Assembly (NCBI GenBank): GCA_964014485.1 | Contig: CAXHAT010000129.1 | Coordinates: forward strand, 1-23,358 | Origin: an uncultured Deferribacteres bacterium | GTDB taxonomy: Bacteria > Zhuqueibacterota > Zhuqueibacteria > Zhuqueibacterales > Geothermadaptataceae | Direction: 5' to 3' | Length of the DNA stretch: 23,358 nucleotides | In this document: positions 4,872-23,358 of the stretch, in pieces | How positions within the stretch are numbered: the stretch's first letter is position 1 | Layout: each line of letters begins with the position of its first letter | Program-made: the position numbers and the translations under genes | The notes under the pieces: generated by a model | Seen by the model: only the letters and a program-made list of their open reading frames with translations | What the model was told of the DNA's origin: nothing | Database searches by the model: none

Positions 4872-6278
4872 CTAACTTCCTTGCTCCGTTTCGTCATCCT
4901 TGATCTGCGGCGCAATCTTGAAACCGGTAAAGCCGTAGATCAAAGCGAAAATGAATCCCGTGTAGCACATGATCATCCAGGGCGCGTACTCAAGCGTGGC
5001 AACTCCGAGAGTGCGCGACATATAAAACCCGGCGATGCTCCACGGGATCAAAGGCACAACCACTGTTCCGCTGTCTTCCAGCGTTCGAGAAAGATTTTTG
5101 GCGGCAAGCTCCATCTTCCTGAACGCCGGAGCAAACAACTCCCCGATAAGAATCGTTGAAACGGCGGCGCTTCCCGTCATGAGGCAAGAAGCTAAACTCG
5201 AAGCAACGGTTGAAGCGATCAGCTTGGCCGTCGAATCAGCGGTCTTTTGCAGGCGCTCAAGCACAACATCGAGCATTCCTCCAGCTTGGACGACGCCGCC
5301 AAAACTAAAAGCGCAGAGCAACAGCAGCACAATATTCATCATTTCAGCCATGCCGCCCCGCGAGAGCAAACTGTCGATCATCTCGTTGTCAGTTTGTGAC
5401 TGGTAACCAGACGTCATCGATCCAAACGCCGCCTGCAAATCCATACTTTGAACCCAAATGGCCAACAATGCCGCGACAAAACTCGCGGCGAACATGCTTG
5501 GGATAATGGGCTTTTTACGAACGGCGGCGACGACAATCATTACAGGCGGCAAAAGCAGAACCGGATGAAACTGAAAATTATCCAAAATTGTTTGCTTGAT
5601 AAGCGCCGTTTGTTCGAGCGAAGCCGCAGCGGCGTCGCCCGATGCGCCGATAAAAAAATAGACAATGACGCCCAAAATCCAGGCCGGAGTCGTCGTCCAC
5701 AGCATATGTTTGATGTGATCAAACAAATTACTTTTTGCGACCGCCGAAGCCAGGTTAGTCATGTCAGAAAACGGAGACATTTTATCACCAAAATAGGCTC
5801 CGGCGATAATAGCGCCCGCCGCTTGTCCCAAGGGAACGCCCAAGCCTTGCGCAACCCCGATCAGCGCTACGCCTACTGTACCCGCGGTTCCGTAAGAAGT
5901 GCCTGTTGTCAAAGACACGATGCTGCAAACGATGCAGGCCGTTGCCAGAAAGTATGTTGGGGAGATAAATTCCAGGCCGTAGTAAATCAACATCGGAATC
6001 GTACCGCTCGCGATCCATGAACCAATAACGGCGCCGACCGCGATAACAATCAGCGCAGCAGGCGTTCCCTTATGAATGCTATTCAGAATTCCGCGCTCAA
6101 TGTCTTTGTAGGTGCATCCCAAACGGCGGGCCAGCAGCGCTGTTACAGCAGCGGCGGTCAAAAGCAGAATTTCTGTATTTAAACGAAAAACTCCAAACCC
6201 AACGCCCAGAAAACTTGCAACGAAAACAAGCGGGAGCAATGCTTCCAAAAGCGTTGGACGGCGGCGCGTTTGAGTCAT
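4872..6278 (-). CDS. nhaC: NhaC-family Na+/H+ antiporter / amino acid transporter (paralog 2)
   Basis: Polytopic membrane protein with GSWIASGTIP, GAYFGDKMSPFSD, LLSRGGM and LSRTLEDSGTV..PLIPW. Confidence 0.92.
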   Translation of the reverse strand: MTQTRRRPTLLEALLPLVFVASFLGVGFGVFRLNTEILLLTAAAVTALLARRLGCTYKDIERGILNSIHKGTPAALIVIAVGAVIGSWIASGTIPMLIYYGLEFISPTYFLATACIVCSIVSLTTGTSYGTAGTVGVALIGVAQGLGVPLGQAAGAIIAGAYFGDKMSPFSDMTNLASAVAKSNLFDHIKHMLWTTTPAWILGVIVYFFIGASGDAAAASLEQTALIKQTILDNFQFHPVLLLPPVMIVVAAVRKKPIIPSMFAASFVAALLAIWVQSMDLQAAFGSMTSGYQSQTDNEMIDSLLSRGGMAEMMNIVLLLLCAFSFGGVVQAGGMLDVVLERLQKTADSTAKLIASTVASSLASCLMTGSAAVSTILIGELFAPAFRKMELAAKNLSRTLEDSGTVVVPLIPWSIAGFYMSRTLGVATLEYAPWMIMCYTGFIFALIYGFTGFKIAPQIKDDETEQGS

Positions 6279-6317
6279 TTATGTATGCAACAGGTTTTGG
6301 GGTGAGTCTAAAATTAT

Positions 6318-7727
6318 TTAGCTGCCGGGTTGAGTTTCGTCATCTCTGAGCTTCGGCGCGATTTTGAACCCGGAAAATCCATAAATCAAGGCGAAAATAA
6401 ATCCCGTGTAACACATGATCGCCCAGGGCGCGTAATCCATTGTCGGAATCCCGAGCGTTCCGGCCATGAAAACGCCGGCGATGCTCCAGGGAACAAGCGG
6501 CACGACAACCGTACCGCTGTCCTCAGTCGTGCGTGACAGGTTTTTGGCCGCGAGTTTTCTTTTCTTGAATGCAGGCGCAAACAGCTCGCCGGGAAGGATG
6601 ATCGACAAAAATGAGCTGCCCGTCATTAACGCCGTGGTGATTCCTGCTGAAACCGTTGAAGCGACGAGTTTACCCGTCGTGTCAGCAATTTTCAGCAGGC
6701 GCTGGAGAATCACGTCAAGCATCCCGGCGGTTTGTACAATTCCGCCGAACGCAAAGGCGCAAAAAGCGATCAACGTGACGTGCATCATATTCGCCATGCC
6801 GCCGCGCGAAAGCAAGCGATCCACCATCTCGCTCCCGGTTTGCGATACGAAGCCGCTTACCATTGAAGCGACTGCTGTTTTCAAGGTCAAGTCTTGAAGC
6901 CAAATCGCCAACGCAACGGCCACGACGGACGAGAACAGCATGTTCGGAATTACCGGTTTTTTGCGGATAGCCGAGTACAACGTGATTAGCGGCGGGAGCA
7001 AAAGCAGAACGTGAAATCGAAAATTTTCATGCACCGTTTGCTGGATAATTTCCGCGTTTTGCAACGAAAAATTCTGTTCGGCGCTTGATGAAAAGCCAAT
7101 AAAAAAATAGACGCTCAAACCAAGAAGCCACGCAGGCGTCGTGGTCCACAATGTGTGTTTGATATGATCGAAAAGATTGCTCTGCGCGGCGATGGGCGCG
7201 AGATTTGTCGTATCCGAAAACGGCGAAAGCTTATCGCCAAAATATGCCCCGGCGACGATGGCTCCGCCTGCTTGCCCCAACGGAATTCCCAAGCCTTGCG
7301 CAATGCCGATAAAAGCCACGCCTATCGTTCCAACCGTGCCGTAGGATGTGCCGGTCACCAATGAGACGATGCTGCAAACAATGCAAGCGGTGACGAGAAA
7401 ATATGCAGGCGAGATAAGATCGAGGCCAAAATAAATCAGCATGGGAATCGTTCCCGCCGCGATCCATGATCCGATGAGCGCGCCGACGACGATAACGATG
7501 AGCATTGCAGGCATGCCTTTCATCATGCTCTGCAAGACGCCTCGTTCGAGTTCTTTGTATGTAAATCCGAGGCGGTAGGCAATAATTCCCGCGACAGTGG
7601 CTGCGGCGAGAAGAAGGATTTCTGCATTGAGACGCAAAACGCCGTAGCCGACGCCAAGGAAAACGGCAACGGCGATCAGCGGAATGATTGATTGACGAAA
7701 AGTCGGTTTTTGATGCGGATCGTTCAT
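6318..7727 (-). CDS. nhaC: NhaC-family Na+/H+ antiporter / amino acid transporter (paralog 1)
   Basis: Motifs GSWIAAGTIP, GAYFGDKLSPFSDTTNLA, LLSRGGM and LSRTTEDSGTV..PLVPW. The start overlaps the upstream M20 stop (ATGA). Confidence 0.92.
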   Translation of the reverse strand: MNDPHQKPTFRQSIIPLIAVAVFLGVGYGVLRLNAEILLLAAATVAGIIAYRLGFTYKELERGVLQSMMKGMPAMLIVIVVGALIGSWIAAGTIPMLIYFGLDLISPAYFLVTACIVCSIVSLVTGTSYGTVGTIGVAFIGIAQGLGIPLGQAGGAIVAGAYFGDKLSPFSDTTNLAPIAAQSNLFDHIKHTLWTTTPAWLLGLSVYFFIGFSSSAEQNFSLQNAEIIQQTVHENFRFHVLLLLPPLITLYSAIRKKPVIPNMLFSSVVAVALAIWLQDLTLKTAVASMVSGFVSQTGSEMVDRLLSRGGMANMMHVTLIAFCAFAFGGIVQTAGMLDVILQRLLKIADTTGKLVASTVSAGITTALMTGSSFLSIILPGELFAPAFKKRKLAAKNLSRTTEDSGTVVVPLVPWSIAGVFMAGTLGIPTMDYAPWAIMCYTGFIFALIYGFSGFKIAPKLRDDETQPGS

Positions 7728-10963: not shown

Positions 10964-11290
10964 GTCATTCTCCTTCCTTCATGCGCTTGGTCGAAAACGG
11001 ATTCAATCGAAATTAAGCGGGGGCGGGGCCAGGCTCAAATTAAACAAAAAAGCCGCTACGCGGCAGGTTCAGACAATATAAAAACGATGACGTGTTGTGC
11101 GGAAAATTTGACTTCGCTTGCGGCAATAACAAACGGTTTTTAGCCTCATCGAGTCGGCGAAGATAGAAAGAAAAGCCTGGAATTGCAAGCAAAACCGCCA
11201 AGCGTTTCTGCATGGCGAAAGCATGTGATATAAGTAAGATAGCAACGAATGCATCGATTGGTTCTTGGGCTGCAACTTGGGTTTTTAGCG

Positions 11291-14200
11291 ATGAATACGC
11301 GGAGATCGTACTACGCCGCGATCCCTTACGATCGGATTGTCATTTCATTCCTGTTTTTTCTTCTTTTCACGTCGTTCGTCGAGGCAAGCGCACAGGAGCG
11401 AGCCACGACAATTCCTTGTGATTCAACCATTTTTGAAGCCCGCTCCCTGCGAGACGACGGCAGGTTAGGGCTTGTCGTTCTGCTGAATCCTTCTAAACCA
11501 CACGAAAATATTGATTCCATTGCCGTAAACGTCCCTCCCGGCGAAAGCGGTTTTTACAGCGTTTCGGCGGAAGTGGAATATAACAGCGGCAACGACCAAA
11601 TAAACGAGACGTTTTTCCTGCTCGTTACTTTGCCAAACGGGCGGAAAAGTTATCCCGTTTACGCGAATCTGCCGCGTCGTTCAACGGCGATGTTGGACGC
11701 AAACGGCGACTCCATCCAATACAATATTGTTTTAGACGACGGCTTGCCGGACAGTCACAAAACGCACCGTCAAATCGGCGTGTTCTTTTTCGAGGAAGGG
11801 CGAAATGTCGTAGAGCTTCACCACTACTCAACGATTGACGATCTATTCCCGCAATTTGTCAATTGTCCCGACACCGCGACGCAAGAGCCGAATTGCACCG
11901 TCAACAGCGACGGCAATAATGTTATCGCCGGAACGCAGAGCGTCAGAATCGACTCGCTGGTACTGACAGAATTTTGCGCTGACCTGGGAATAACCCAGAC
12001 CGCAATCACACGCCACAAAATCTTCGTCGACAACGATTCCGCCCAGGCAGAAATCGCAGGTCAGGACTTCGAGTATATTCTAAGTGTAAAAAACGTTGGT
12101 CAAAATCCGGCGGCGCAATTTGTCGTTTCGGATACGCTCCCGATCATCCTGACTCCAACTTTTAAAAACCTCACGCCAACCGAAACAACGATTGACGGCC
12201 CGAACCAAATTCTGAGCTGGGTATTCGATACGGCGGCGGATTCGCTTTTTCCTGGGGACAGCGTCGATATTTCTTTTTCCGTCAACATTCCTGAATTCCT
12301 GTCGCCATTGCCAACGCCTCTTTTTAGCGGCAGTCGTGTTGAAACCGACGAAGATCCCGTTGATGAAAACAATACTTCATCAACTTTGGTTTACGCCATC
12401 GATGATCCCGCACTTCGATTCGCAGATCTCGCAGTTTCACAACTGATCGCCGCCGATTCTATAATTACGGGGGATATGACTTGGGTAAGACTCTCGGTCG
12501 AAAACTTTGGCCCCGGCCCTGCGCTCAATGTCACGCTCACAGACACGCTCCCGGCAATCCTCGAGGCGCTTTCGCCGTTGCCGGATTTCGGCGCTGGCGG
12601 GCGTTCAGCCGTCCACGGCAACGTGCTTTTTTGGCAATTTGATACTTTGGAATCAGGCATTGTTTTACAAGACTCGTTTTTGGTCAAAGCGGATTCCGTC
12701 GCGGAAGCGCAAACGTTTGTAAATCCGGCCTTTATCCAAGCCGATAATGATACGATTCTCAACAACAATTTCGCAATTGACAGCCTTGTTGTCCTTCCGC
12801 CGCCGCCGCCCAATTATGATTTGGCGCATTTTCAAACGGCGACGACGGACTCGGTACGTTCCGGTGAGTTTTTCTCTTATTTCTTGCGATTAGAAAACCT
12901 CGGCCCGGACACGGCCTTTAACATTTTACTGCAAGACTCGTTGCCCGCCAATATTTCAATTCGCCAGCCTTTGCCGGACTTTGGAATTGGCGTTTCTGCA
13001 ATTTCGGAAGAAAATCTCATGACCTGGCAAATTGAATTTTTAGGCCCAAATGATGTGCTCGCCGATACGCTTTTCGCAGTCGCCGATACCGTCGCTGATT
13101 TCACGCAAGCCATAAATAAAAGTGTTTCGACGGCGAGCTTTGATCGCGATTCGCTCAACAACAACGCCGAGACGGTCATCACAATCGCGCCGCCGCCCCC
13201 GCCGCCGGTCAATTATGACATCGTCCACACGCAGGAAGCAAGCCGAGACACGGTTTTTGAGAATGAGTCGTTCACATATTTTTTGAGAGTTGAAAATCTG
13301 GGGCCGCTTCCGGCTTTTTCCGTAACGCTCCGCGATTCCTTGCCCCAAAACATCACGCTTGCCGATTCACTCACATTGCCGGACTTTGGCATAGGCGTTG
13401 AGCCGGTTTTGGAACAAAATATTTTAACGTGGCGGTTCGACGCCTTGGCTGCCGGGAGCGCGCTTGTTGATTCGTTTTCGGTGATCGTGGACAGTTTAGA
13501 CCAGCAGGTCGAATTGGTTGGACTTTCGAGCGTGACCGCGGCAAACGACACGGTTTTGACAAATAACGTTTCACAGACCACAGTCATTGCGCGCCCCATG
13601 CCTACGGCGAATTATGACGTCGTGCAATTGCACTCCGTCAGTAGAGACACGGTTAAATCGGGAGAAATTTTTGCTTACACACTCATCGTTGGCAATCTCG
13701 GCCCGGCGACGGCCTACGATGTGGTTTTGCAGGATTTCTTGCCCGACAACGTTTTTCCTTTCGGCAAGTTGCCCAATTTTTCCGACAACGGCCAAATGAC
13801 GCAACAGGGTCAATCGCTTTTCTGGCGTTTCGACTCGATCGCTGTGAACAAAGCTTTCGCCGACACTTTGAACGTCATCGTCGGACAAGTATTTTCGCCG
13901 ACCCGGCTCTCGAACGTTACCATTATCCAAGCCGAAAACGACACGGTTTCCAGCAACAATTCAACGCAAACTACGGTGTTCGCGCTGCCTCTCGCCCCGA
14001 TCCCAACGGTCAACTATGACGTCTCACATTCACAAACCGCCAGCAAAGACACAGCCCGGTCTCATGAAGAAATCGGCTACACTTTGACTCTGCAAAATTC
14101 TGGGCCGGCAACTGCTTTCAACGTTGAGTTGCAAGATTCATTGCCTTCAGGTCTTTCTATTTCACGAAATCTTCCTGACTTTTCCGGCGCTGCAACGGTT

Positions 14201-15079
14201 ACGCAAAACGGGCAAAATATTTTTTGGACTTTCGATTCCATTGCTTCTCAGGAAGTTTTGACAGATTCAATTTTTGTCAGTACAGGCGACATTTCAGACG
14301 CCACCGTCTTCACCAATTTTTCTTTTACAAGAGCGACAAATGATACTGTCGCGACAAATAATGACGCGTTGACTTCATTCGTGGCGCTACCGCCGGATCC
14401 AATTCGACCGGCGGAATACACGCTCATTCACACGCAACGCGTCAGCGCCGATTCGGTCGCGACCAACGATGTTTTCAATTACACCTTGACGGTTGAAAAC
14501 CTGGGGCCGGACTCTTCACTTGCCATAACGATGAGCGACTCATTGCCGTCGCAAATCACAACGACAGGCGCGGTTCCGCTTCTCAGCAGACGTGAAAACG
14601 CCACGCTTATTTGGAACTTGCCGGCGATTGCGCCCAATGATTCCACTGTCGTCACATTTTCCGTTCAGGTCGCTGAGCTTCCTGCGGATCAAATCACCCC
14701 CATTGCAAATCTTAGCGAGATCGTTGATCGCGGCGATACGCTCAGCGCGCAAACGACGGTTGTTGGCGTCGGCGAAACCACTCCCACGATTTTTTCCACG
14801 GAATGCTTTTTAGATCGCAATGTTTTTGCGCCGGAAACCGAACAGACTTTCGGGATCAATTTCTCAATCGACCAACCCATGAACGTCCGCATCGACGTTC
14901 ATGACATGACCGGATCGCACGTTATCCAACTTCTTGATCAAAACTTCGGCGCCGGGCAAAATCGGTTTGAATGGAACGGCCTCGACAAAAATAATCGGCC
15001 TGCAGGAAGCGGGTTATACATTGTTACTTTCCGCACGGATGCGTTTATGGATTGGAAGAAATTCATGATCGTTCGATGA
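11291..15079 (+). CDS. Large secreted surface protein: N-terminal beta-sandwich, seven DUF11 repeats, C-terminal FlgD-Ig/T9SS-like sorting domain
   Basis: Signal peptide (..ISFLFFLLFTSFVEASA-Q). Seven repeats of D(L/I/V)xxxQ...YxLxVENLGP..A.NV.L.DxLP...WxFD.L...NN from ~11978, with poly-Pro linkers. C-terminus INFSID..VRIDVHDMTG..V..L...FEWNGLD....GSGLYIV....WKKFMIVR. Start is either 11249 or 11291. Confidence 0.88.
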   Translation: MNTRRSYYAAIPYDRIVISFLFFLLFTSFVEASAQERATTIPCDSTIFEARSLRDDGRLGLVVLLNPSKPHENIDSIAVNVPPGESGFYSVSAEVEYNSGNDQINETFFLLVTLPNGRKSYPVYANLPRRSTAMLDANGDSIQYNIVLDDGLPDSHKTHRQIGVFFFEEGRNVVELHHYSTIDDLFPQFVNCPDTATQEPNCTVNSDGNNVIAGTQSVRIDSLVLTEFCADLGITQTAITRHKIFVDNDSAQAEIAGQDFEYILSVKNVGQNPAAQFVVSDTLPIILTPTFKNLTPTETTIDGPNQILSWVFDTAADSLFPGDSVDISFSVNIPEFLSPLPTPLFSGSRVETDEDPVDENNTSSTLVYAIDDPALRFADLAVSQLIAADSIITGDMTWVRLSVENFGPGPALNVTLTDTLPAILEALSPLPDFGAGGRSAVHGNVLFWQFDTLESGIVLQDSFLVKADSVAEAQTFVNPAFIQADNDTILNNNFAIDSLVVLPPPPPNYDLAHFQTATTDSVRSGEFFSYFLRLENLGPDTAFNILLQDSLPANISIRQPLPDFGIGVSAISEENLMTWQIEFLGPNDVLADTLFAVADTVADFTQAINKSVSTASFDRDSLNNNAETVITIAPPPPPPVNYDIVHTQEASRDTVFENESFTYFLRVENLGPLPAFSVTLRDSLPQNITLADSLTLPDFGIGVEPVLEQNILTWRFDALAAGSALVDSFSVIVDSLDQQVELVGLSSVTAANDTVLTNNVSQTTVIARPMPTANYDVVQLHSVSRDTVKSGEIFAYTLIVGNLGPATAYDVVLQDFLPDNVFPFGKLPNFSDNGQMTQQGQSLFWRFDSIAVNKAFADTLNVIVGQVFSPTRLSNVTIIQAENDTVSSNNSTQTTVFALPLAPIPTVNYDVSHSQTASKDTARSHEEIGYTLTLQNSGPATAFNVELQDSLPSGLSISRNLPDFSGAATVTQNGQNIFWTFDSIASQEVLTDSIFVSTGDISDATVFTNFSFTRATNDTVATNNDALTSFVALPPDPIRPAEYTLIHTQRVSADSVATNDVFNYTLTVENLGPDSSLAITMSDSLPSQITTTGAVPLLSRRENATLIWNLPAIAPNDSTVVTFSVQVAELPADQITPIANLSEIVDRGDTLSAQTTVVGVGETTPTIFSTECFLDRNVFAPETEQTFGINFSIDQPMNVRIDVHDMTGSHVIQLLDQNFGAGQNRFEWNGLDKNNRPAGSGLYIVTFRTDAFMDWKKFMIVR

Positions 15080-15122
15080 AAACAAGCAGTACATTTTTTA
15101 AAAACAAGAGCGTCATCCGCCG

Positions 15123-15216
15123 TGTCATACCCGCGCAGGCGGGTATCCAGACAACGACATCTAAAAGCTGGATACCCGCCGGAGTCTATACTCGCGCAGG
15201 CGGGTGCGGTATGACA
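15123..15216. repeat. REP/RPE-like palindromic element (GTCATACCCGCGCAGGCGGGTATCCAG type), in frame with the downstream ORF
   Basis: TGTCATACCCGCGCAGGCGGGTATCCAG (15123-15150) is followed by an inverted copy CTGGATACCCGCC...GCGGTATGACA (15168-15216), which is interrupted by a third partial unit. It translates as VIPAQAGIQ...WIPA...GMT. Confidence 0.8.
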
Positions 15217-15270
15217 AAAGCTGCGCTTTGGAGCAAAAAGGAAAAACCTGCCCCTAAAAGGGGGATAGGA

Positions 15271-18117
15271 GTGGGTAAAAGCACGTTCTCTCCTCCGCTC
15301 ATCATCGCATTTATATTTTTCGCTTTATTCTCATCAGCCTTAAACGCCCAAATTCGCTCAGGCGCTTCATTCCTGAAGATTATCCCGGGCGCGCGCCAGC
15401 ATGCGATGGCGGGAAGCCTCACCGGCGTTATCGATAACGCGGCAGCGATCTACGCCAACCCGGGCGCTGCGGGCTTTTTGCGAGAATGGCATTGGAATCT
15501 CGCTTATTCGAGCTGGGCCCCCGGCGTTTACAATGCCTCCGCGATGTTCGCCCGGCGACTTACCACGCCTTGGAGCAATCAAACGCGTTTCGCACTCAGT
15601 GCATCATTTCTCGGCGTTAAAGAATTCGACAGTTCCGGAGGACGCGCGCCAACAGCTTCCGGCGGCGACTATTGGATCGCCGCAAGCGTCGGCCAGCCGC
15701 TGAAAACAGCAGTCAGCGGGCTTTCTTTTGGCGCCAGCATTAAATATTTGAACAGCCGCTTGAGCGATTTCAAAGCTTCAACGTTTGCATATGACGCAGG
15801 CTTACTCTTCCGAACCGCACGGTTCAATTTTTTGAACGGCGCCTTTAAACACGGCGTTTTGTCAGCGGGACTCGGCCTCACGCAAAACGGCGCCGCGCTC
15901 AATTTTGTTTCTGTCGCAACGCCGCTGCCTCGCACATTTCGCAGCGGCTTGGCGCTTCATCTTGGCTCCCACGAAAACCTTCAAACGCATTTTTCTCTGG
16001 ATTACAAAAGGATTCGCGATGAAGACGGTTTTTTCTCGCTTGGCGCGGAATTCTCAATCGCAAACTTGCTCTCCATGCGGCTCGGCTATACTTTTGAAAA
16101 CAGCCAATTGCTTCGCCGCTTCAATTTTGGCTTTAGCATCGGTCTAAACGACGTGAGAGCGGGGCGAAAAAGCGTTCTGCCCGGTCGCAACAAAGCGATT
16201 CGAATCGATCTTGCGGCGCCCAACAGCAATGATTTTTTTGCGCAACCTTACAACGGCTCCGTCAACCACTATACAATCCGGCCGGAGCGTTTTGAAATGC
16301 GTTCCCCGGCTTTGGGCGCGAACGTCCCGACCAAAGAAATTCAACTACAATGGAGCGCCTCACGCGACCCTGACGTATTCGATGACGTACTTTACTGGCT
16401 GCTCGTTGATGAAGAACGCGTAAATATTGAAGAAGCGTTGGCAGTGATTGAATCCGCACCGACAGAGTCGTTTTTTGCTTCGCTGCAAGCGCCGGTGCTG
16501 GCGTTAAGTGACACAACCCGCCAAACAAGCGCCGGTTTTGTTCTTCCGGAGCTTCAGTGCAAGACCTTTTACTGGTCGGTTGTTGCCGTCGATAAAGACC
16601 GGCATTTTCGCGTGGCCAAGCAAAACGGCTCACGCATCTCAAACTTCAGTCTGGCGTTGCCGGATTTGGAAATTACCAGTATTGATTTTGCGCCGAAAGC
16701 GTCCAACGGCTACGGCGTTTTCGCTTCTGACATTGTCGCACAAATTCAAAACAGCGGGACGGCGCCTGCGGGCAACGTCACAATCTCCATTTACGGTTCG
16801 CGGACGGGCGACGGCGAGTTACAGCGAATCGGTTCAATTCCAGCCATTAGATCGCTGGCTCCCGGCGAAACCGAAGCCGTCACATTTGTTTGGCCGCAAG
16901 AAGAAATTGCCGCCCGGCAAGTTGTGATGGTTGTTGACGAACAAAATTTCATTCCGGAATGCAACGAAGATAACAATCGCTCCGCGCGTGATTTGCCAAC
17001 AACGCTGACGCGCGGCTATGATTTAAGCATCTCAAAAGCGGCGTCCCAAAATTCCGTTTTTCCAGGAGACACGCTTACTTATGCGTTGATTGTTCGCAAT
17101 GACGGTCCTTTTCCGGCCTATAATATTGCCGTCGAAGATGCGGTTCCTTCGGCGCTTTTTCCTTACGAGTACAACATCGCACCCAACGCTTCGGGCGATA
17201 CGTTAAAATGGCAAATTGAAGCGCTGCAAGTCGGCGAGTCATTTGAAATTCGCTATGACACGCGTGTGAAAGGCGCGTTTGCCGGCGGCGCTCCGGAAGA
17301 ATTGAGCGGCGTCAATTTCGAGCTGGGCAAGGCGGTTTTGACTTTGGAAGCGCAAAAGTATCTCGATGATTTTGCAACGCAATTGCGCCAGGCTGTGCAG
17401 GAAAACCCAAACGCTGCAATTGAGATTCGCGGGCACACCGACAGTCAGGGCGCGGAAGCTTACAACCAAACGCTCTCACAAGCGCGTGCGGAAAGCGTGA
17501 AGAATTATCTGGTTTCGAAAGATACGACTTTTTCCATTCTGACGGCAAAAGGCTACGGTGAAAGTCAGCCGATTGCGCCGAACGATACGCCAGAATGCCG
17601 CGCCAAAAACAGACGCGTGGAAATGACGATTCCCGAAACGCAAGCTCCAGCTCCAGCCGCGAGAAAAGCGCTCGTCAATCGCGCCGCGGTTTGGGCGGGG
17701 GACGACAGCGATCCGACCAACAATTTCACCGAAACCATCGTGACCATGCAGCAAGCCAAAGTTGCGGCTTCGATGTTTATTGCGGTAAACTTTGATTTTG
17801 ATCAGGCGGCGTTAACCGCTGAAGCGAAAACGGCGATTGAAAATATTTTGCCGACGATTGAAAGCAAATTGCGGGGAAATAAAAACTTGCGAGTGGAAAT
17901 TGCTGGTCACACCGACGGCAAAGGCTCCGATGAGTACAATTTGGCGCTTTCAAAACGCCGGGCGGAAGCCGTGCTTGCCTATCTCGGCGAACAATGCCTC
18001 AGAAAAGAGCGTCTCTCAGCCACAGGTTACGGTGAAGGCAAGCCGATTGCCGACAACGAAACTGAAGCCGGGCGCAAAAAAAACCGACGGGTGGAAATTA
18101 AATTTATACAAGAGTAG
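15271..18117 (+). CDS. PorV/PorQ-like outer-membrane beta-barrel fused to FN3-like, CARDB, DUF11 and two OmpA_C-like domains
   Basis: GASFLKIIPGARQHAMAG...AAAIYANPGA is the PorV/UPF0164-type N-terminus. Then LQWSASRDPD...YWL...FYWSVVAVD (FN3-like), LPDLEIT...IQNSGTAPA...VDEQNFIPECNEDNN (CARDB) and YDLSISK...TYALIVRNDGP (DUF11). Two OmpA_C domains each show GHTD..G...YN..LS..RAE.V...GYGE..PIA.N.T...R.KNRRVE. Start is uncertain: GTG 15271 gives a clean signal peptide, while ATG 15076 overlaps the upstream stop. Confidence 0.85.
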   Translation: MGKSTFSPPLIIAFIFFALFSSALNAQIRSGASFLKIIPGARQHAMAGSLTGVIDNAAAIYANPGAAGFLREWHWNLAYSSWAPGVYNASAMFARRLTTPWSNQTRFALSASFLGVKEFDSSGGRAPTASGGDYWIAASVGQPLKTAVSGLSFGASIKYLNSRLSDFKASTFAYDAGLLFRTARFNFLNGAFKHGVLSAGLGLTQNGAALNFVSVATPLPRTFRSGLALHLGSHENLQTHFSLDYKRIRDEDGFFSLGAEFSIANLLSMRLGYTFENSQLLRRFNFGFSIGLNDVRAGRKSVLPGRNKAIRIDLAAPNSNDFFAQPYNGSVNHYTIRPERFEMRSPALGANVPTKEIQLQWSASRDPDVFDDVLYWLLVDEERVNIEEALAVIESAPTESFFASLQAPVLALSDTTRQTSAGFVLPELQCKTFYWSVVAVDKDRHFRVAKQNGSRISNFSLALPDLEITSIDFAPKASNGYGVFASDIVAQIQNSGTAPAGNVTISIYGSRTGDGELQRIGSIPAIRSLAPGETEAVTFVWPQEEIAARQVVMVVDEQNFIPECNEDNNRSARDLPTTLTRGYDLSISKAASQNSVFPGDTLTYALIVRNDGPFPAYNIAVEDAVPSALFPYEYNIAPNASGDTLKWQIEALQVGESFEIRYDTRVKGAFAGGAPEELSGVNFELGKAVLTLEAQKYLDDFATQLRQAVQENPNAAIEIRGHTDSQGAEAYNQTLSQARAESVKNYLVSKDTTFSILTAKGYGESQPIAPNDTPECRAKNRRVEMTIPETQAPAPAARKALVNRAAVWAGDDSDPTNNFTETIVTMQQAKVAASMFIAVNFDFDQAALTAEAKTAIENILPTIESKLRGNKNLRVEIAGHTDGKGSDEYNLALSKRRAEAVLAYLGEQCLRKERLSATGYGEGKPIADNETEAGRKKNRRVEIKFIQE

Positions 18118-18197: not shown

Positions 18198-19928
18198 CTA
18201 TTTTCTTCCCTTCTTGATCAACTGGAAAACGAATTCCAATTCCGCGTCTCTCCCGTCTAAAATATCTCCTAATTTCGGTTTTACAATGTAGTCCGGCATG
18301 AGCGGGTCGCCCATTTTGAACCCGGTGACGGCTGTTTGAAAAGTGTCTTGCGGCAGATTCAGCATAATTCCTGTTTCGGGCAAAGTTATCCGTATGCTTT
18401 TATCATTGCAATAGAAAGTCCCTCCCGATTCTTCGCCAATCAGAACCGCCAATTTGTGATACTTGATCAAAGATAGAAAATGGCCGGTCGACGATAGGCA
18501 GCTCCCGTTTATCAACACATAAACTTCGCCTTCAAAGTATTGATTCTTGCGCTTTATTGGTCGGTACAAAGGGCTGAACTCGCCCTGCTCTTTCGGCGTC
18601 TCGAAATAGGTGAAACCGGACTTGGTCAAGTACGAAAGCAGCTCAGCCGCCAAAAAAGGATGGCCGCCCAAATTCCCTCTCACGTCGATAACAAGCCGTC
18701 GGATTCTCTCTGCTTTCATCCTGCTGAATGATTTTCGGAGAAAGGCTTTATATTCTTCGTGGTTTGGCGATCCGAAGCTTTTTACAGAGAGGAGCGCAGT
18801 GCCGCCTTCGTCAAAAATTTGTAATTGCAGGGGCAACGTCTTGGCTGAAAATCTCTCGGGATGCGCGTTTTCGATTGCTTCGTCAAGAAGCTCACGGGTT
18901 TGCCCCTGAAGCTGCACCCGAACCTTGCTTCCGGACGGAGTCAAACATTCGAGATCAAATCGCTCATCGTTGCCGATATAAAGAGAGTAGACGTGAGAAA
19001 AGTTTGCGTTTATTTCATAAGCTTTGTAGGTGCGATTGAAGCCGTCGGACGGGACGCTTGCAGCCAGACGCTTCCAAATTTCAGACGACTCCCTACCGTT
19101 GATCGACAAAACGCGCATACCTGCGGAAACGGCAGAGCTTTGACTATAATTGGCGACAATGTACGCCTTTTCACCGAAAATTTTTATGTCCAGGGGGAGC
19201 AGACTTCTTTTGTTGCGCAGCGCATTTGAGAATTCGCGCGACGGTTGGATGCGCGTATGACTGCATCTGACTTTTGTCGTCAATGGAGCGAGCAATCGCA
19301 AGAAGGCGTCTTCCGTCATTTCCGCTTTGATTGCCTGAAACGTACTATCGAACTGGCCGTCAAACCTCTCCTTTGAGATAAAACCATACAATTTTGGATG
19401 AGTATTCTCCAACTGTCGCCGTAGAAAGGCAAAGTCGCTTTGTAACTGTTTGACCGAATATTTTTTCTCTAAAATATTGTCCCCACGCCTGCTCTGTTTG
19501 GCTTTCGCAAATTCTCCGAGCGAAGGCTTTTCCACTTTTTTCACCGCGACCGGGTGGGTTGAACCGTTCGGAAACTTTAAATTGCCCGTAATTTGCAGAC
19601 CATTGGAGTCCAATTTTCCATTAAACGGCGTGTCCTTCGCTGCAATTAAGAATGAAAGGCGGTTTTTCTCCAGAAAAATATTCTTCAAAGGGTCGTCTTG
19701 AATTTGAATTTTGCCTTGAAAAAGGAGGATTCTCCCCGCCATTGTTCCATCGTTTTGTTCATGAAAGGCGAGTATCAGCGTGAGATTATTGCCCGGCATA
19801 AATTCCCCTTCCCAATACCCGGCTATTTTTTGAAAGTCAGACGTTACTTGCGGCGCTGCGTTGTTGACGGTCAGGAATGCGCAAATTATGAGTATGCGCA
19901 AGTACAGCGGAACTCTTCTTTTCGACAT
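18198..19928 (-). CDS. Secreted S41-family peptidase with PDZ-like segment and an extra N-terminal beta domain
   Basis: Motifs SDFAFLRRQLENTHPKLY, CSHT, GMRVLSING (PDZ), LVIDVRGNLGG, VLINGSCLSSTGHF, IGEESGG and MPDYIV. The ATG at 19928 has AAAGGAG upstream and begins a signal peptide. The ORF-track start at 20168 overlaps the next gene. Confidence 0.87.
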   Translation of the reverse strand: MSKRRVPLYLRILIICAFLTVNNAAPQVTSDFQKIAGYWEGEFMPGNNLTLILAFHEQNDGTMAGRILLFQGKIQIQDDPLKNIFLEKNRLSFLIAAKDTPFNGKLDSNGLQITGNLKFPNGSTHPVAVKKVEKPSLGEFAKAKQSRRGDNILEKKYSVKQLQSDFAFLRRQLENTHPKLYGFISKERFDGQFDSTFQAIKAEMTEDAFLRLLAPLTTKVRCSHTRIQPSREFSNALRNKRSLLPLDIKIFGEKAYIVANYSQSSAVSAGMRVLSINGRESSEIWKRLAASVPSDGFNRTYKAYEINANFSHVYSLYIGNDERFDLECLTPSGSKVRVQLQGQTRELLDEAIENAHPERFSAKTLPLQLQIFDEGGTALLSVKSFGSPNHEEYKAFLRKSFSRMKAERIRRLVIDVRGNLGGHPFLAAELLSYLTKSGFTYFETPKEQGEFSPLYRPIKRKNQYFEGEVYVLINGSCLSSTGHFLSLIKYHKLAVLIGEESGGTFYCNDKSIRITLPETGIMLNLPQDTFQTAVTGFKMGDPLMPDYIVKPKLGDILDGRDAELEFVFQLIKKGRK

Positions 19929-20101
19929 GCGCTCTCCTTTGGACGGCTCATTGGCTCCACGCAAATCGCGCAAATCTGGCTGCTGCGAAGTGAACTCCCG
20001 TCCAAATTGTTTTACGTTTTTGTGTTTGCCGTGAGAATTCCAAGCGAAGCAATTTTTGACCTGCCGCCAGCCCGGTTTTTTAGCGGCGCAGTCTCTAATC
20101 A

Positions 20102-21046
20102 CTAAAGACCATGCATGTTCTCTTGCCCAAAATGTCGCAAGACCCGCAGAGCGCGGAGAGTGTTCCAACGACTTGGCCCGCCTGTTTTTTCCATATCAAA
20201 ATGCGTTTGGCCCGGATGTTTCGCCTGCACCGGCCAAGTTCCGTCGCGCCGTCTTTTCTTCTGCAAAACGTCCAGCGCCGGCTGCATTCGATGATCATAC
20301 GGCTGCCCGCAAGTTTGAAAGTAAACCAAAGCGCGCAAAATATCATATCTCCAGCGCGAAGGGTAGGACAGCATTAAAAAGCGCTTGTCGATGATTTTGC
20401 CGGTGTGATCAGAGCGGAACAATTGGTGTTGAAGAATAAACTCTTTCGCTTCCGTCGCAATCCTTTCCAGCTCCGCTAGGCGATAAACATAGCCATTGAC
20501 CGCGTATTCCCACAGTCCTTCCAGAACCGAGATGGTTGAGTGCAAAGAACTATGCACCGCACCGCTCCGATTGAGGCGGCAATTGAAACCGCCGTCCGGC
20601 ATTTGTTGCGAAACAATCAGATCAATGAGTGATTTGAGGCGGGCTTCCGGAGCTCCGAAATAAGAAGCATAGTTCAGAAACATCCCATCAACGCAGATAT
20701 CGCTTTTTCGCTCGGTCCCAATGGGGAGAATGCCGCCGTCGGGAGCTTTGTGGTTTTGAAGAACCTGAGCAATTGAAGACTGAATTTGAGAGTTGTCCGG
20801 CGGAAAATTGAGATGTTTCAAATCGAGAAGAGTGTAGTGGGTCGAAATCCATTTGGGTTGATAAAAAGCCTGCCCCCAATGCCCGTCTGGGTGGCGTGCC
20901 TGCATAAACCTTCTTCCCCAGCCTTCAGAAGCGATTCGTTTTTGCAAGTCCGGTCTTGTTTCGCCCAACAAATCGCGACAGGTTTGGTACTGGATCGCGA
21001 CGTCCCCTTTTAGCAGCCAGGAAATGAGAGGTTCTTTATCCGTCAT
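20102..21046 (-). CDS. Prenyltransferase/squalene-cyclase-repeat (alpha/alpha toroid) protein of unknown function
   Basis: QW-like repeats RHPDGHWG, HKAPDGG, QQMPDGGFNC and RRRDGTWP, plus YPSRWRYDILRAL and PSRWNTLRALRVL. RBS GAGAGG upstream. Confidence 0.75.
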   Translation of the reverse strand: MTDKEPLISWLLKGDVAIQYQTCRDLLGETRPDLQKRIASEGWGRRFMQARHPDGHWGQAFYQPKWISTHYTLLDLKHLNFPPDNSQIQSSIAQVLQNHKAPDGGILPIGTERKSDICVDGMFLNYASYFGAPEARLKSLIDLIVSQQMPDGGFNCRLNRSGAVHSSLHSTISVLEGLWEYAVNGYVYRLAELERIATEAKEFILQHQLFRSDHTGKIIDKRFLMLSYPSRWRYDILRALVYFQTCGQPYDHRMQPALDVLQKKRRRDGTWPVQAKHPGQTHFDMEKTGGPSRWNTLRALRVLRHFGQENMHGL

Positions 21047-21107: not shown

Positions 21108-21312
21108 TTCACTACCTGACATTTTTTGCAAATTGCCATTTAGCGCTGGAGAGAAAGCCCCGAATTGTCATTCTGAAGGAATCCTTGTTATCGTCCGGCA
21201 CAGGTTTTCCCCGAACGTTCAAGGGTTAGGGCTAAAAGGATGCTTGCAGCATGACAATTCTGGGCTTTTTGAAACGCTTGCATAGTTGTTATAAAAAGTG
21301 TTAGGTAGTGAA
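21108..21312. mobile_element. MITE-like non-autonomous element (~205 bp) with terminal inverted repeats and target-site duplication
   Basis: Left TIR TTCACTACCTGACATTTTTTGCAA matches the reverse complement of the right end, TTCACTACCTAACACTTTTTATAA (20/24). Direct repeat TTTATGCAG abuts both ends (21099-21107 and 21313-21321). Internal 32-bp imperfect inverted repeat at 21154-21185 / 21237-21268. Confidence 0.78.
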
Positions 21313-21554
21313 TTTATGCAGTGTCAAAATACGTAAGCGGGCACAGTTTTTCAAGGCAATTTCTCAGAATTCCTTGCCTGAAACGTGAAAATTTGGCGAT
21401 GCGGGATGGAACAATGTAACAAACTTTTGCGGCGAAAATATGAAGGAGAGAAGTTGTCTAAACAAACCAAATCGCGTATCGGAAAACATTAAACCGGCAA
21501 AGTTTTGATGTTTTAAAGACACGTGAACATTTTTTCAAAAATAACAACCGCTTG

Positions 21555-21654
21555 TTCTAACGGTCGCGCATGTGTTGCCCAAAACAGCTAGATGAAGGTG
21601 CCAGACCCGAAACAGCGACAGCTGTTTTGGGTCAATACGATGCAGCTGTTATGC
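21555..21654 (-). repeat. attC: Integron attC recombination site 1 (100 bp)
   Basis: On the minus strand: R'' GCATAAC ... R' GTTAGAA. Arm GCAT(C)GTATTG(A)CCCAAAACAGCT pairs with AGCTGTTTTGGGCAACACATGC, leaving two extrahelical bases (C, A) on the R''-L'' arm. It lies 39 nt downstream of the cassette gene stop. Confidence 0.9.
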
Positions 21655-22901
21655 CGAAATTTGTTATAGGCAAGGAGACTATGCCCAATCTGTTTATTCA
21701 GTTCTTGCACAAAAACCGTTTGAACAAAGCCACTCTAGCATGGTTTCGTAGTACCCGTCCGCGTAGGGAGTTTTCCAATAATCAGACTTTTGAGACTCAA
21801 AGTAACTACCTGTTCTACTCAATCTGAGGTTGTGGTCGGCATTTGGAAACACCCTGACAGATAATCGGGCCTCCCCATTTGGGCCTAAAGTACTCTCATA
21901 GAGTTTCTTTGTTTTTCTCCAGTCGACTTGAGTATCTCTCCCGCCAAATATAGCGAGCACTGGACACGAAACAGTTTTTAGAATTTGATCAAAACCTTCA
22001 ATGTAAATCTGCAGCCCGCTTTCTTCATCAAACAAGTGCCCCTCGGCGATGTAGCCTTTTTGACTTTTCAGGTACTGTCGTTGGGCCTGGACATACGCGT
22101 CGCTCTCCGGGGCGTGCTCCAAATATTCCTGGCCCGTGAGCCGTTGTACCATCTCGTTTCTACGGAAAGTCTTAGTCGAGCTTGTGTATTCTTCGAAAGA
22201 GCCACCCAACCTATAAATCCTATTTCCATCAACCCATTCTTTGTATACGACGTCTATCTCGGCGCCTGAATGTCCTTCCAGCTTCAGATTGGATCGAAGG
22301 AGATACCCCCAATTCTCGAATGCATCTGTGCCACTGATGGAGATCCAAAACTTGACACTTGGCTCTTTGTTAATTGCAAGTGGTGCAATCCATCCCGCAC
22401 GACTCACTCCCCATAGGCCAATTTTTTCAGAACCAGCTTCCTCATTATCCTTCAATGCTTGAATGGCTGAAACAATTTCGTCGGCACTACTATCGACGGG
22501 CTGATTTATGTCAAAAACTCCCTCGCTCTTTCCGCAGCCTGGCTTGTCCCAGACAACAACTGAGATGCCTTTTGATGTGAATTTGGATCGGAGCTCGTGA
22601 TACCCGTTATTCTTGACAACGTTTGTGGGACCATAACCATGCACTATGATAATTATGGCATTTGCTTTCATTTCTTGGGGGCGACTGATGATGCCGTTTA
22701 GATTTAGGCCAGAGGATTCAAACGTAAATTCGCCAGTGGTAAATGTTGAGGATGTTTGAGCTACGCTCGAGGTGAGAGAAACAAACGCTATGATAAACGT
22801 GCCTATGCAATTCTTGAGGTTTTTGATTTCATATCCCATAAATTGTTTGTCCAATTCTATTGAACTCACTCAAAATCGTTGAATTGGCCGAGGAGGCATA
22901 A
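21561..22901 (-). mobile_element. Complete integron gene cassette (1341 bp) carrying an alpha/beta hydrolase
   Basis: Runs from the G|TTATGCC crossover of attC2 to the G of attC1 R'. Its first bases GTTATGCC are the exact complement of its own R'' GGCATAAC, as expected of a circularisable cassette. It holds a single ORF in canonical orientation and is visibly more AT-rich than the flanking genes. Confidence 0.87.
21694..22839 (-). CDS. Secreted alpha/beta-fold hydrolase (S9/aminopeptidase-like), cassette-borne
   Basis: Motifs IIVHGYGP, WDKPGCGKSEG, nucleophile elbow GLWGVSRAG, GGRDTQV (Asp) and FPNADH (His). A signal-peptide-like stretch follows ATG 22839. The ORF-track start is GTG 22869. 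Confidence 0.88.
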   Translation of the reverse strand: MGYEIKNLKNCIGTFIIAFVSLTSSVAQTSSTFTTGEFTFESSGLNLNGIISRPQEMKANAIIIIVHGYGPTNVVKNNGYHELRSKFTSKGISVVVWDKPGCGKSEGVFDINQPVDSSADEIVSAIQALKDNEEAGSEKIGLWGVSRAGWIAPLAINKEPSVKFWISISGTDAFENWGYLLRSNLKLEGHSGAEIDVVYKEWVDGNRIYRLGGSFEEYTSSTKTFRRNEMVQRLTGQEYLEHAPESDAYVQAQRQYLKSQKGYIAEGHLFDEESGLQIYIEGFDQILKTVSCPVLAIFGGRDTQVDWRKTKKLYESTLGPNGEARLSVRVFPNADHNLRLSRTGSYFESQKSDYWKTPYADGYYETMLEWLCSNGFCARTE

Positions 22902-22995
22902 CGGTTGCGCATGTGTTGCCCAAAACAGCTAGATGAAGGCGCCAGACCCGAAACAGCGACAGCTGTTTTGGGTCAATACGATGCAGCTGTTATGC
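22896..22995 (-). repeat. attC: Integron attC recombination site 2 (100 bp)
   Basis: On the minus strand: R'' GCATAAC ... R' GTTATGC. Same structure as attC1, differing at only 2 internal positions apart from the bases beyond the crossover. Confidence 0.9.
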
Positions 22996-23073
22996 TCAAA
23001 TGTTACCTATGTCCCTGTCCGCTCAGATGCTTTTGGGTATGTAGGGAAACTTTGGTAACTCCGAAGAGAGTTT

Positions 23074-23325
23074 TCAATTGCCCGCTTCTTCGGACTCATC
23101 GTAGTTATAAAAATGGTCACATTCACAAGATATAAGTTGACCACCGCATTTTGGACACTTTTCCATGTCGCAACCGTACAAGTGTATTTGATTTTCTACG
23201 ATGCAACAATCATGGCAGGGAGTAGCAAAGTACTTAATCTCTGTCATTGACCATTCATTCTTGCTGCCGTATTTAATTCGTTCAAATTCTTCACCATCAA
23301 TGACTGAAGTGGACCCCAATGTCAA
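23074..23325 (-). CDS. Small Cys/His-rich putative zinc-binding protein in the next (partial) cassette
   Basis: PCHDCC...H.YGCDMEKCPKCGGQLISCEC. The stop is 78 nt before attC2. The TTG start is weak, and an in-frame TAA lies at 23346-23344. Confidence 0.65.
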   Translation of the reverse strand: MTLGSTSVIDGEEFERIKYGSKNEWSMTEIKYFATPCHDCCIVENQIHLYGCDMEKCPKCGGQLISCECDHFYNYDESEEAGN

Positions 23326-23358
23326 GACAGTTTTTACGAGAAGTTAAGGTGGATGAGG

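Follow-up and report, generated by a model that had tools for sequence, protein, structure and literature searches.

The window analysed here, a stretch of 23,358 nucleotides that corresponds to an entire contig (C129) and whose right end is the end of an insertion sequence (IS), very probably carries the two cassettes of a reverse chromosomal integron, the head of which would lie across the IS on another contig of the same genome (C46) and the integrase gene (intI) of which would have been deleted. With no integrase at hand the cassettes are likely frozen, and they are likely read from the old intI promoter. The genome (G000; an 8.4-Mb assembly of 465 contigs, 97% complete and 0.8% contaminated) belongs, as the first-pass annotation of the window had supposed, to a poorly studied lineage of the FCB type, probably KSB1.

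attC sites and cassettes of the window

Two repeats on the minus strand, 1341 bp apart and identical at 95 of 100 positions, bound the array: the terminal site attC A (21555..21654), with the crossover G|TT between 21561 and 21560, and attC B (22896..22995), which ends cassette 1 and has its crossover between 22902 and 22901. Of the five differences, three fall on bases after the crossover. Read on the minus strand, each site consists of R'' GCATAAC, 5 nt, CAT[C]GTATTG[A]CCCAAAACAGCT ... AGCTGTTTTGGG CAACAC ATG, 7 nt and R' GTT, with 6 nt between the extra C and the extra A, so that both cores have the R'' with its 5-nt spacer and the R' with its 7-nt spacer; the bases outside AAC/GTT deviate from the RYYY/RRRY consensus. 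Folded with energy parameters for DNA, the plus (bottom) strands of both sites form the canonical stem with an extrahelical T and G (21632 and 21639 in attC A, 22973 and 22980 in attC B), with pair probabilities of 0.97-1.00 for attC B and 0.67-0.88 for attC A. The folding z-scores of the two plus strands are -5.3 and -2.7. Our heuristic attC scan gave 21.5 to both sites, the shuffled genome having one match at 17.5. The first-pass annotation had read the repeats as attC sites of an array in minus orientation, from two unpaired bases six nt apart, and the core motifs, the fold and the scan score bear out this reading.

The loop of both sites (22945-22974 and 21604-21633) contains a near-copy of one stem arm, so that a competing inner hairpin is possible, which would abolish the extrahelical T. 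An RNA consensus of six members of the attC family favoured such an alternative inner hairpin, the probability of which in the two window sites was 0.00-0.12 with DNA parameters. An Rfam search of the window sites gave no relevant family match. A terminator-like hairpin across the distal crossover (21544..21567, minus strand) is one of 2 in the region against 2.4 expected, not above chance. As for the attC family, which had been thought possibly undescribed, its pattern has 5 matches in its own genome, on 4 contigs, and is absent from the other genomes of the phylum (0 of 166) and from JGI metagenome contigs (0 matches), that is, private to its own genome in the phylum sample, in keeping with the suggestion.

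Both window cassettes contain one ORF up to their attC and start with a sequence complementary to their own R''. Cassette 2 (21561..22901, minus strand, 1341 bp) starts with TTATGC, which complements its R'' GCATAAC exactly, and the single ORF between the two attC sites (21694..22869, minus strand) encodes an alpha/beta hydrolase of 391 codons from a GTG, or 381 from the ATG at 22839, with Hydrolase_4 and Peptidase_S15 over cut-off. Cassette 1 is present in the window as its 3' part (22902..23304, minus strand); its 5' part would be C46:43150-43820, after an attI-like G|TT at C46:43149/43150, for a full size of about 1.07 kb without the IS. The window holds the last 76 codons (23074..23304, minus strand) of its IS-interrupted gene, which in full would encode about 288 aa with a Cys-rich C-terminus, and the N-terminus of a homolog matches PADLOC PDC-S64 (E 1e-25). 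Two cassette genes on the minus strand had been proposed: the orientation stands, while the 'gene' at the right edge is a 3' part only, cut by the IS at 23305. The co-oriented genes at 20102-21046 and 18198-20168 have no detectable attC and are therefore excluded from the cassette count.

Elsewhere the window contains a 205-bp palindromic MITE (21108-21312) with a 9-bp target duplication (TTTATGCAG), of which the genome has 65 near-full-length copies, many with 8-9-bp duplications; a gene for an LRR-Roc-COR protein with an NPHP3/TIR-like domain at its C-terminus (3-2486); a tandem duplicate of Na+/H+ antiporter-family genes with a DNA identity of about 72% (4872-7727); and a tandem pair of genes for large secreted proteins (11249-18117), one with seven DUF11 repeats and a FlgD-like tail and the other of the type CARDB-DUF11-2xOmpA.

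Probable join across the insertion sequence

The last 54 bases of the window (23305..23358, plus strand) are the end of a multicopy IS at which the assembly breaks, presumably of the IS3 family, to which the type of its ends, the 3-bp duplication and the start of OrfA point. The same sequence recurs at five more contig ends, a sixth having a variant close by, and the opposite IS end occurs on six contigs, five of which pair one-to-one with an end of the first type by their 3-bp duplication, a pairing with a simulated chance probability of about 1e-4. The partner of the window is the right end of C46, where the flank of the opposite IS end matches the target duplication GAC at 23302..23304 (plus strand). 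A second line comes from the interrupted gene: in a 273-aa homolog, residues 6-204 align with C46:43221-43820 and residues 204-271 with window positions 23304-23095, and with no other site in the genome, and of the 44 homologs found for the C46 half, 37 extend over the window half as well. The ORF that enters the IS on C46 and the one that leaves it in the window thus read as two halves of one gene. Finally, cassette 1 starts on C46 with G|TTATGC, and the R'' of attC B is complementary to this attI-side GTTATGC at every base. From these three independent lines (target duplication, split-gene homologs and R''/R' match) we infer the join; no bridging read or contig across the collapsed IS repeat was found in three sequencing runs from one study, all of them of DNA. 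Joints of a cassette circle or of an IS-free allele were likewise not found in the three runs, and contigs can show presence only. At least 152 contig ends of this genome carry adapter sequence, presumably of the Nextera type, in clusters of 88 and 64, which is an assembly artefact.

Probable head of the array on C46

Along one strand, C46 and the window would together run from a promoter-like site through an intI stub, the remnant of orfX, palindromic boxes and an attI-like G|TT to cassette 1 with its attC and then cassette 2 with its attC, the platform head lying about 1 kb after gyrB and also being preceded by a gene for a YefM-type antitoxin. The promoter-like site is of the sigma-70 type (TTGACA-17-TATTTT with TG, at C46:42508); one such site was found in the region against 1.2 expected by chance, and its weight rests on its conservation across copies of the platform. 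The intI gene starts at C46:42583 and is broken after about 34 codons (E 8.5e-8 to the IntI profile); it is co-oriented with the cassettes and upstream of the attI-like site, which is the reverse layout. It is followed by the remnant of orfX, a broken 115-aa gene with one in-frame TAG, by AT-rich, palindromic and repeated boxes, and by the attI-like site ACATAAT-CCCAA-G|TT (C46:43137-43151), which is assigned by position and motif and is kept at C45 and C323. A dnaA-like gene, recognised by eye, is located 7 kb upstream of the platform head; if oriC lies there, the attC bottom strand would be the leading-strand template, which is the low-excision orientation of sedentary integrons.

The prediction of intI and attI beyond the right edge is therefore upheld through the join, in the form of the stub and the attI-like site, and the window repeats are indeed the distal end of an array, with the attI-like head on C46 and attC A last. 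More cassettes had been expected beyond the edge as well, and this expectation fails: C46 reaches the attI-like site, 671 bp into the contig, with no other attC detected, leaving an array of two cassettes. Also expected to the right was a tyrosine recombinase with the IntI-specific insertion. At the array there is only the stub of about 34 codons, and the insertion region survives in a pseudogene on the same contig, 35 kb from the array head (C46:6307-7291), the single near-full intI copy in the assembly, which does not reach the TIGR02249 cut-off and has a frameshift as well as a stop after the LLGH motif. No intact intI was found in the assembly at its 97% completeness. The array is thus not a complete integron, and operationally, with two attC sites and no nearby intI, it falls among the CALINs, though an intI stub is present. 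After the intI pseudogene lies a low-GC island (L050, C46:1-6038), in which attC was not detected and where a small protein, a 916-aa caspase-like protein and MotA/TolQ-like genes were named by eye.

The near identity of the two attC sites had been taken as the mark of a large sedentary array, and it is very improbable that the window closes a single large, complete sedentary integron that continues past the contig end with many more near-identical attC sites. Adjacent sites that are 95% identical and a family private to its own genome would fit such an array. However, the join arrives at the attI-like site without meeting further attC, the family pattern has only the 5 matches given above, and the same family occurs as single sites on C44, C124, C35 and C213. 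Large sedentary integrons are held to have more than 19 attC per array (PMC4889954); here there are 2, and at most 3 calls per contig.

Other attC sites and platforms in the genome

The accepted attC sites of the genome number 20, on 15 contigs. They comprise 14 of the 16 calls of the heuristic, which made 1 call in the shuffled genome, and 6 sites from a sequence model (E <=0.0024); the heuristic calls on C69 and C128 (17.5, the same as the shuffled match) and four model matches (E >=0.035) were left out. A palindrome of about 106 bp with GTCATTCCCGCGCAGGCGGGAATC, which we take to be REP-like, is frequent on many contigs (e.g. C6:59927-60032) and caused false attC calls. Within their own contigs, 10 of the 20 attC checked have a perfect upstream R' for their R'' (the chance of finding a given 7-mer within 2.6 kb being about 0.16), and 7 of these 10 matches sit on the preceding attC or on an attI-like site. 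The intI promoter-leader is present in 7 copies with different deletion end-points, and the genome contains at least 7 intI-derived platform remnants, none with an intact intI. The same platform order is found at C44, with two cassettes, and at C45, with three, every cassette having a perfect R''/R' match. Three further promoter-like and several attI-like sites (C6, C355, C61, C260, C40 and C35) may bring the total up to 14 loci at the most; the evidence for these is weaker and partly self-trained, as the promoter and attI profiles recover their own training sites by construction and the sole independent attI-like match is C35:7137.

A two-gene CBASS-like cassette of this genome, with an SMODS/AGS_C cyclase (E 5e-188) and a 1TM effector, is flanked by an attI-like site on one side and an attC on the other (L045, C260:2943-4947); a solo cassette encodes a pentapeptide-TIR protein (L057, C3:33838-35331); and another cassette encodes a Ser/Thr kinase together with a small partner (L041, C45:27533-29159). 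Cassette genes are duplicated between loci (L043, L044, L045, L056 and L058), as with a gene of about 260 aa on C213 and C260 and a 103-aa membrane gene on C312 and C355, the attC sites of the latter two cassettes being near-identical. At C44:6914-6920 (L040), the crossover of the terminal attC overlaps with the stop of a chromosomal gene in convergent orientation.

The presence of solo cassettes at GTT sites that look bare (C124, C335 and C3), which fit the SALINs already described (bioRxiv 10.1101/2022.09.11.507474), raises the idea that the window is a platform-free CALIN formed by two insertions at secondary GTT (attG) sites, with a merely coincidental link to C46. The three independent lines for the join count against it, as does the resemblance of the C46 site to its attI-like counterparts on C45 (85%) and C323 (77%), and we regard this idea as highly unlikely.

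A more serious alternative, though still rather unlikely, is that the array is live, its attI and attC sites being served in trans by an intact IntI that is unassembled or located on mobile DNA, so that the loci would form a distributed integron. The use of CALIN cassettes in trans has been proposed (PMC4889954). Several observations are in line with this possibility: both window sites keep the canonical fold; half of the sites checked have a perfect R''/R' pair within their own contigs; contigs from the same marine runs show the window attC family with other flanks, as loose ends; IntI is over cut-off in 19 of 40 relatives; and an intact intI could have escaped assembly, the intI of many relatives being located at contig ends. 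Against it stand the lack of an intact intI in the assembly, the decayed attI/attC cores at other platforms (G|TA, G|GT and G|TC) and the IS inside cassette 1, and a frozen array is the preferred reading.

orfX in the phylum

OrfX is a protein of about 115 aa (4120 protein clusters) with no match to a Pfam or NCBIfam family; Pfam Arm-DNA-bind_5 gave E 0.01 with 1 of 6 members only. The gene is present in 75 of 167 genomes of the phylum, 26 of which (several with 5-9% contamination) carry it at more than one separate locus, and was not found in plasmid or phage collections. Among 55 chosen loci (40 taken for multicopy or good assembly and 15 top matches), 29 have an adjacent co-oriented intI match and 26 do not, with attC downstream in 9 of these 26. 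All 20 attC calls at the 55 loci are downstream and co-oriented, with 0 in shuffles, and so are the 8 calls in an earlier set of 42 intI/orfX loci in relatives (28 of 28 in total), in a scan of low sensitivity where many contigs end just after attI. We consider orfX a likely accessory part of integron platforms. It is not a required one, since several intact integrons lack it; in some, orfX comes before intI. Four deleted copies in one relative (G037) have a common intI::orfX junction, readable in both frames, which is probably the result of microhomology.

The AlphaFold model of OrfX (pLDDT 88.5, pTM 0.49) predicts two small alpha/beta domains. The best fold match with VIA-align had Z 4.1, none reaching 5, and the best match of a PDB sequence search had E 0.17. 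Neighbours of the predicted structure carry DUF5710 (PF18974), with a score under the bar, and the C-terminal domain has no Pfam match. From the position of the gene, a DNA-binding accessory part is a guess. Palindromic boxes seen by eye are common after orfX and differ in platforms that lack it; a fixed pattern meant to capture them as OrfX-specific sites scored 0 in most loci, since the boxes vary.

Probable multiplication of platforms

The promoter-leader of the window platform has its best matches in its own genome (E 5e-30 to 1e-19), the best elsewhere being 2e-8 in a set of 167 genomes that includes no congener. In a tree of 66 of 73 orfX 3' ends (138 alignment columns, bootstrap unsettled), copies from the same genome cluster, with 17 changes against a shuffled mean of 25.1 and 0 of 200 shuffles as low. 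Strong clades are formed by copies of G037 (4), G025 (3 of 4) and G149 (2) and by those of C46 and C45, which the third copy of the genome (C44) joins at support 46/0 only, while the copies of G036, G062 and G088 are scattered. Both duplication within genomes and several platform lineages per genome are thus indicated. In the host lineage the platform has likely multiplied, each locus decaying separately, as the different deletion end-points of the copies suggest. Donors of the same genus may also have supplied copies, the sample holding no congener genome. In most pairs of paralogs the homology sets in 10-60 nt ahead of the -35 box. No inverted or terminal repeat or duplication was seen there, and such a starting point fits a mobile unit or plain functional constraint alike. 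A platform moving as a super-cassette through attC x attG found no support: a GTTATGC lies 50 bp before the -35 box of the window platform only, and 6 more upstream regions of this genome and 27 of relatives, inspected by eye, have no comparable box close to the promoter.

A broader scheme is possible, although we give it little credence: OrfX would be a fourth platform part, a 115-aa two-domain protein binding the boxes before attI, and a mobile promoter-to-attI unit would seed many mini-integrons per chromosome, each of which sheds its intI and is left as a promoter with a docking site, the result being a distributed integron, served in trans, whose members standard tools report as unrelated CALINs.

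Comparison with known integrons and a possible pathway

In the preferred reading of a decayed reverse integron, an intact IntI would first have inserted the cassettes at attI by recombination of the attC bottom strand, which is established integron chemistry. An internal deletion would then have taken most of intI, leaving some 0.65 kb between the first cassette gene and the promoter, which would thus act as a Pc. Transcription from a single promoter can, in the reverse layout, run across intI, orfX and attI, so that a deletion in the middle would drop the shuffling enzyme and keep cassette expression. The IS would later have disrupted cassette 1, and its body may either block or supply the transcription of cassette 2. 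Platform copies would have multiplied in the lineage and then decayed locus by locus.

Vibrio-type sedentary chromosomal integrons have highly similar, host-specific attC sites, whereas here there is no large array, intI is reverse and the members of the attC family are dispersed. Reverse integrons, CALINs and SALINs and the decay of intI are all in print already. In the 'unusual' or inverted-integrase integrons of the Treponema denticola type, intI is transcribed toward attI, in the direction of the cassettes (PMC3607928, PMC4909258, PMC4889954), and the locus described here shares with those of T. denticola and its kin the place of the attI, here an attI-like site, between intI and the first cassette, canonical attC and a lineage-specific attC family. 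However, the T. denticola array has 45 cassettes, against 1-3 detected attC per array and many platforms per genome here, and in the present case intI is deleted and a 115-aa orfX lies beside it; the likeness is one of layout. With CALINs and SALINs the window shares two attC and no functional integrase nearby, and an automated tool would call it a CALIN (PMC4889954; bioRxiv 10.1101/2022.09.11.507474), but here a promoter-like site, an intI stub and an attI-like site survive. In the survey of Cury 2016, intI pseudogenes were found near only 15 of 279 CALINs, with matches over 50% of the profile required (PMC4889954), so that a 34-codon stub would be missed. In Xanthomonas, intI has been inactivated repeatedly while the arrays remained stable, from one ancestral locus at ilvD, in contrast to the many loci found here, which are differently flanked and of reverse orientation (bioRxiv 10.1101/2025.06.18.660453). 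The accessible text of PMC9024848 has nothing on integron orientation, and our literature search found no description of KSB1 integrons, of an orfX-like gene or of phylum-wide platform multiplication; an unnamed protein is hard to find by words, and supplementary genome tables may list such integrons.

The locus itself illustrates an ordinary integron fate. It also shows one way in which CALINs can arise and would escape the pseudogene test in print, the near-total deletion of intI in reverse integrons, with promoter and attI left behind. Where the textbook parts are intI, attI and Pc only, orfX would add a conserved, unannotated gene tied to integron platforms, and it may serve as a marker for platforms that have lost their integrase, some of them with defence genes such as those of the CBASS cassette.
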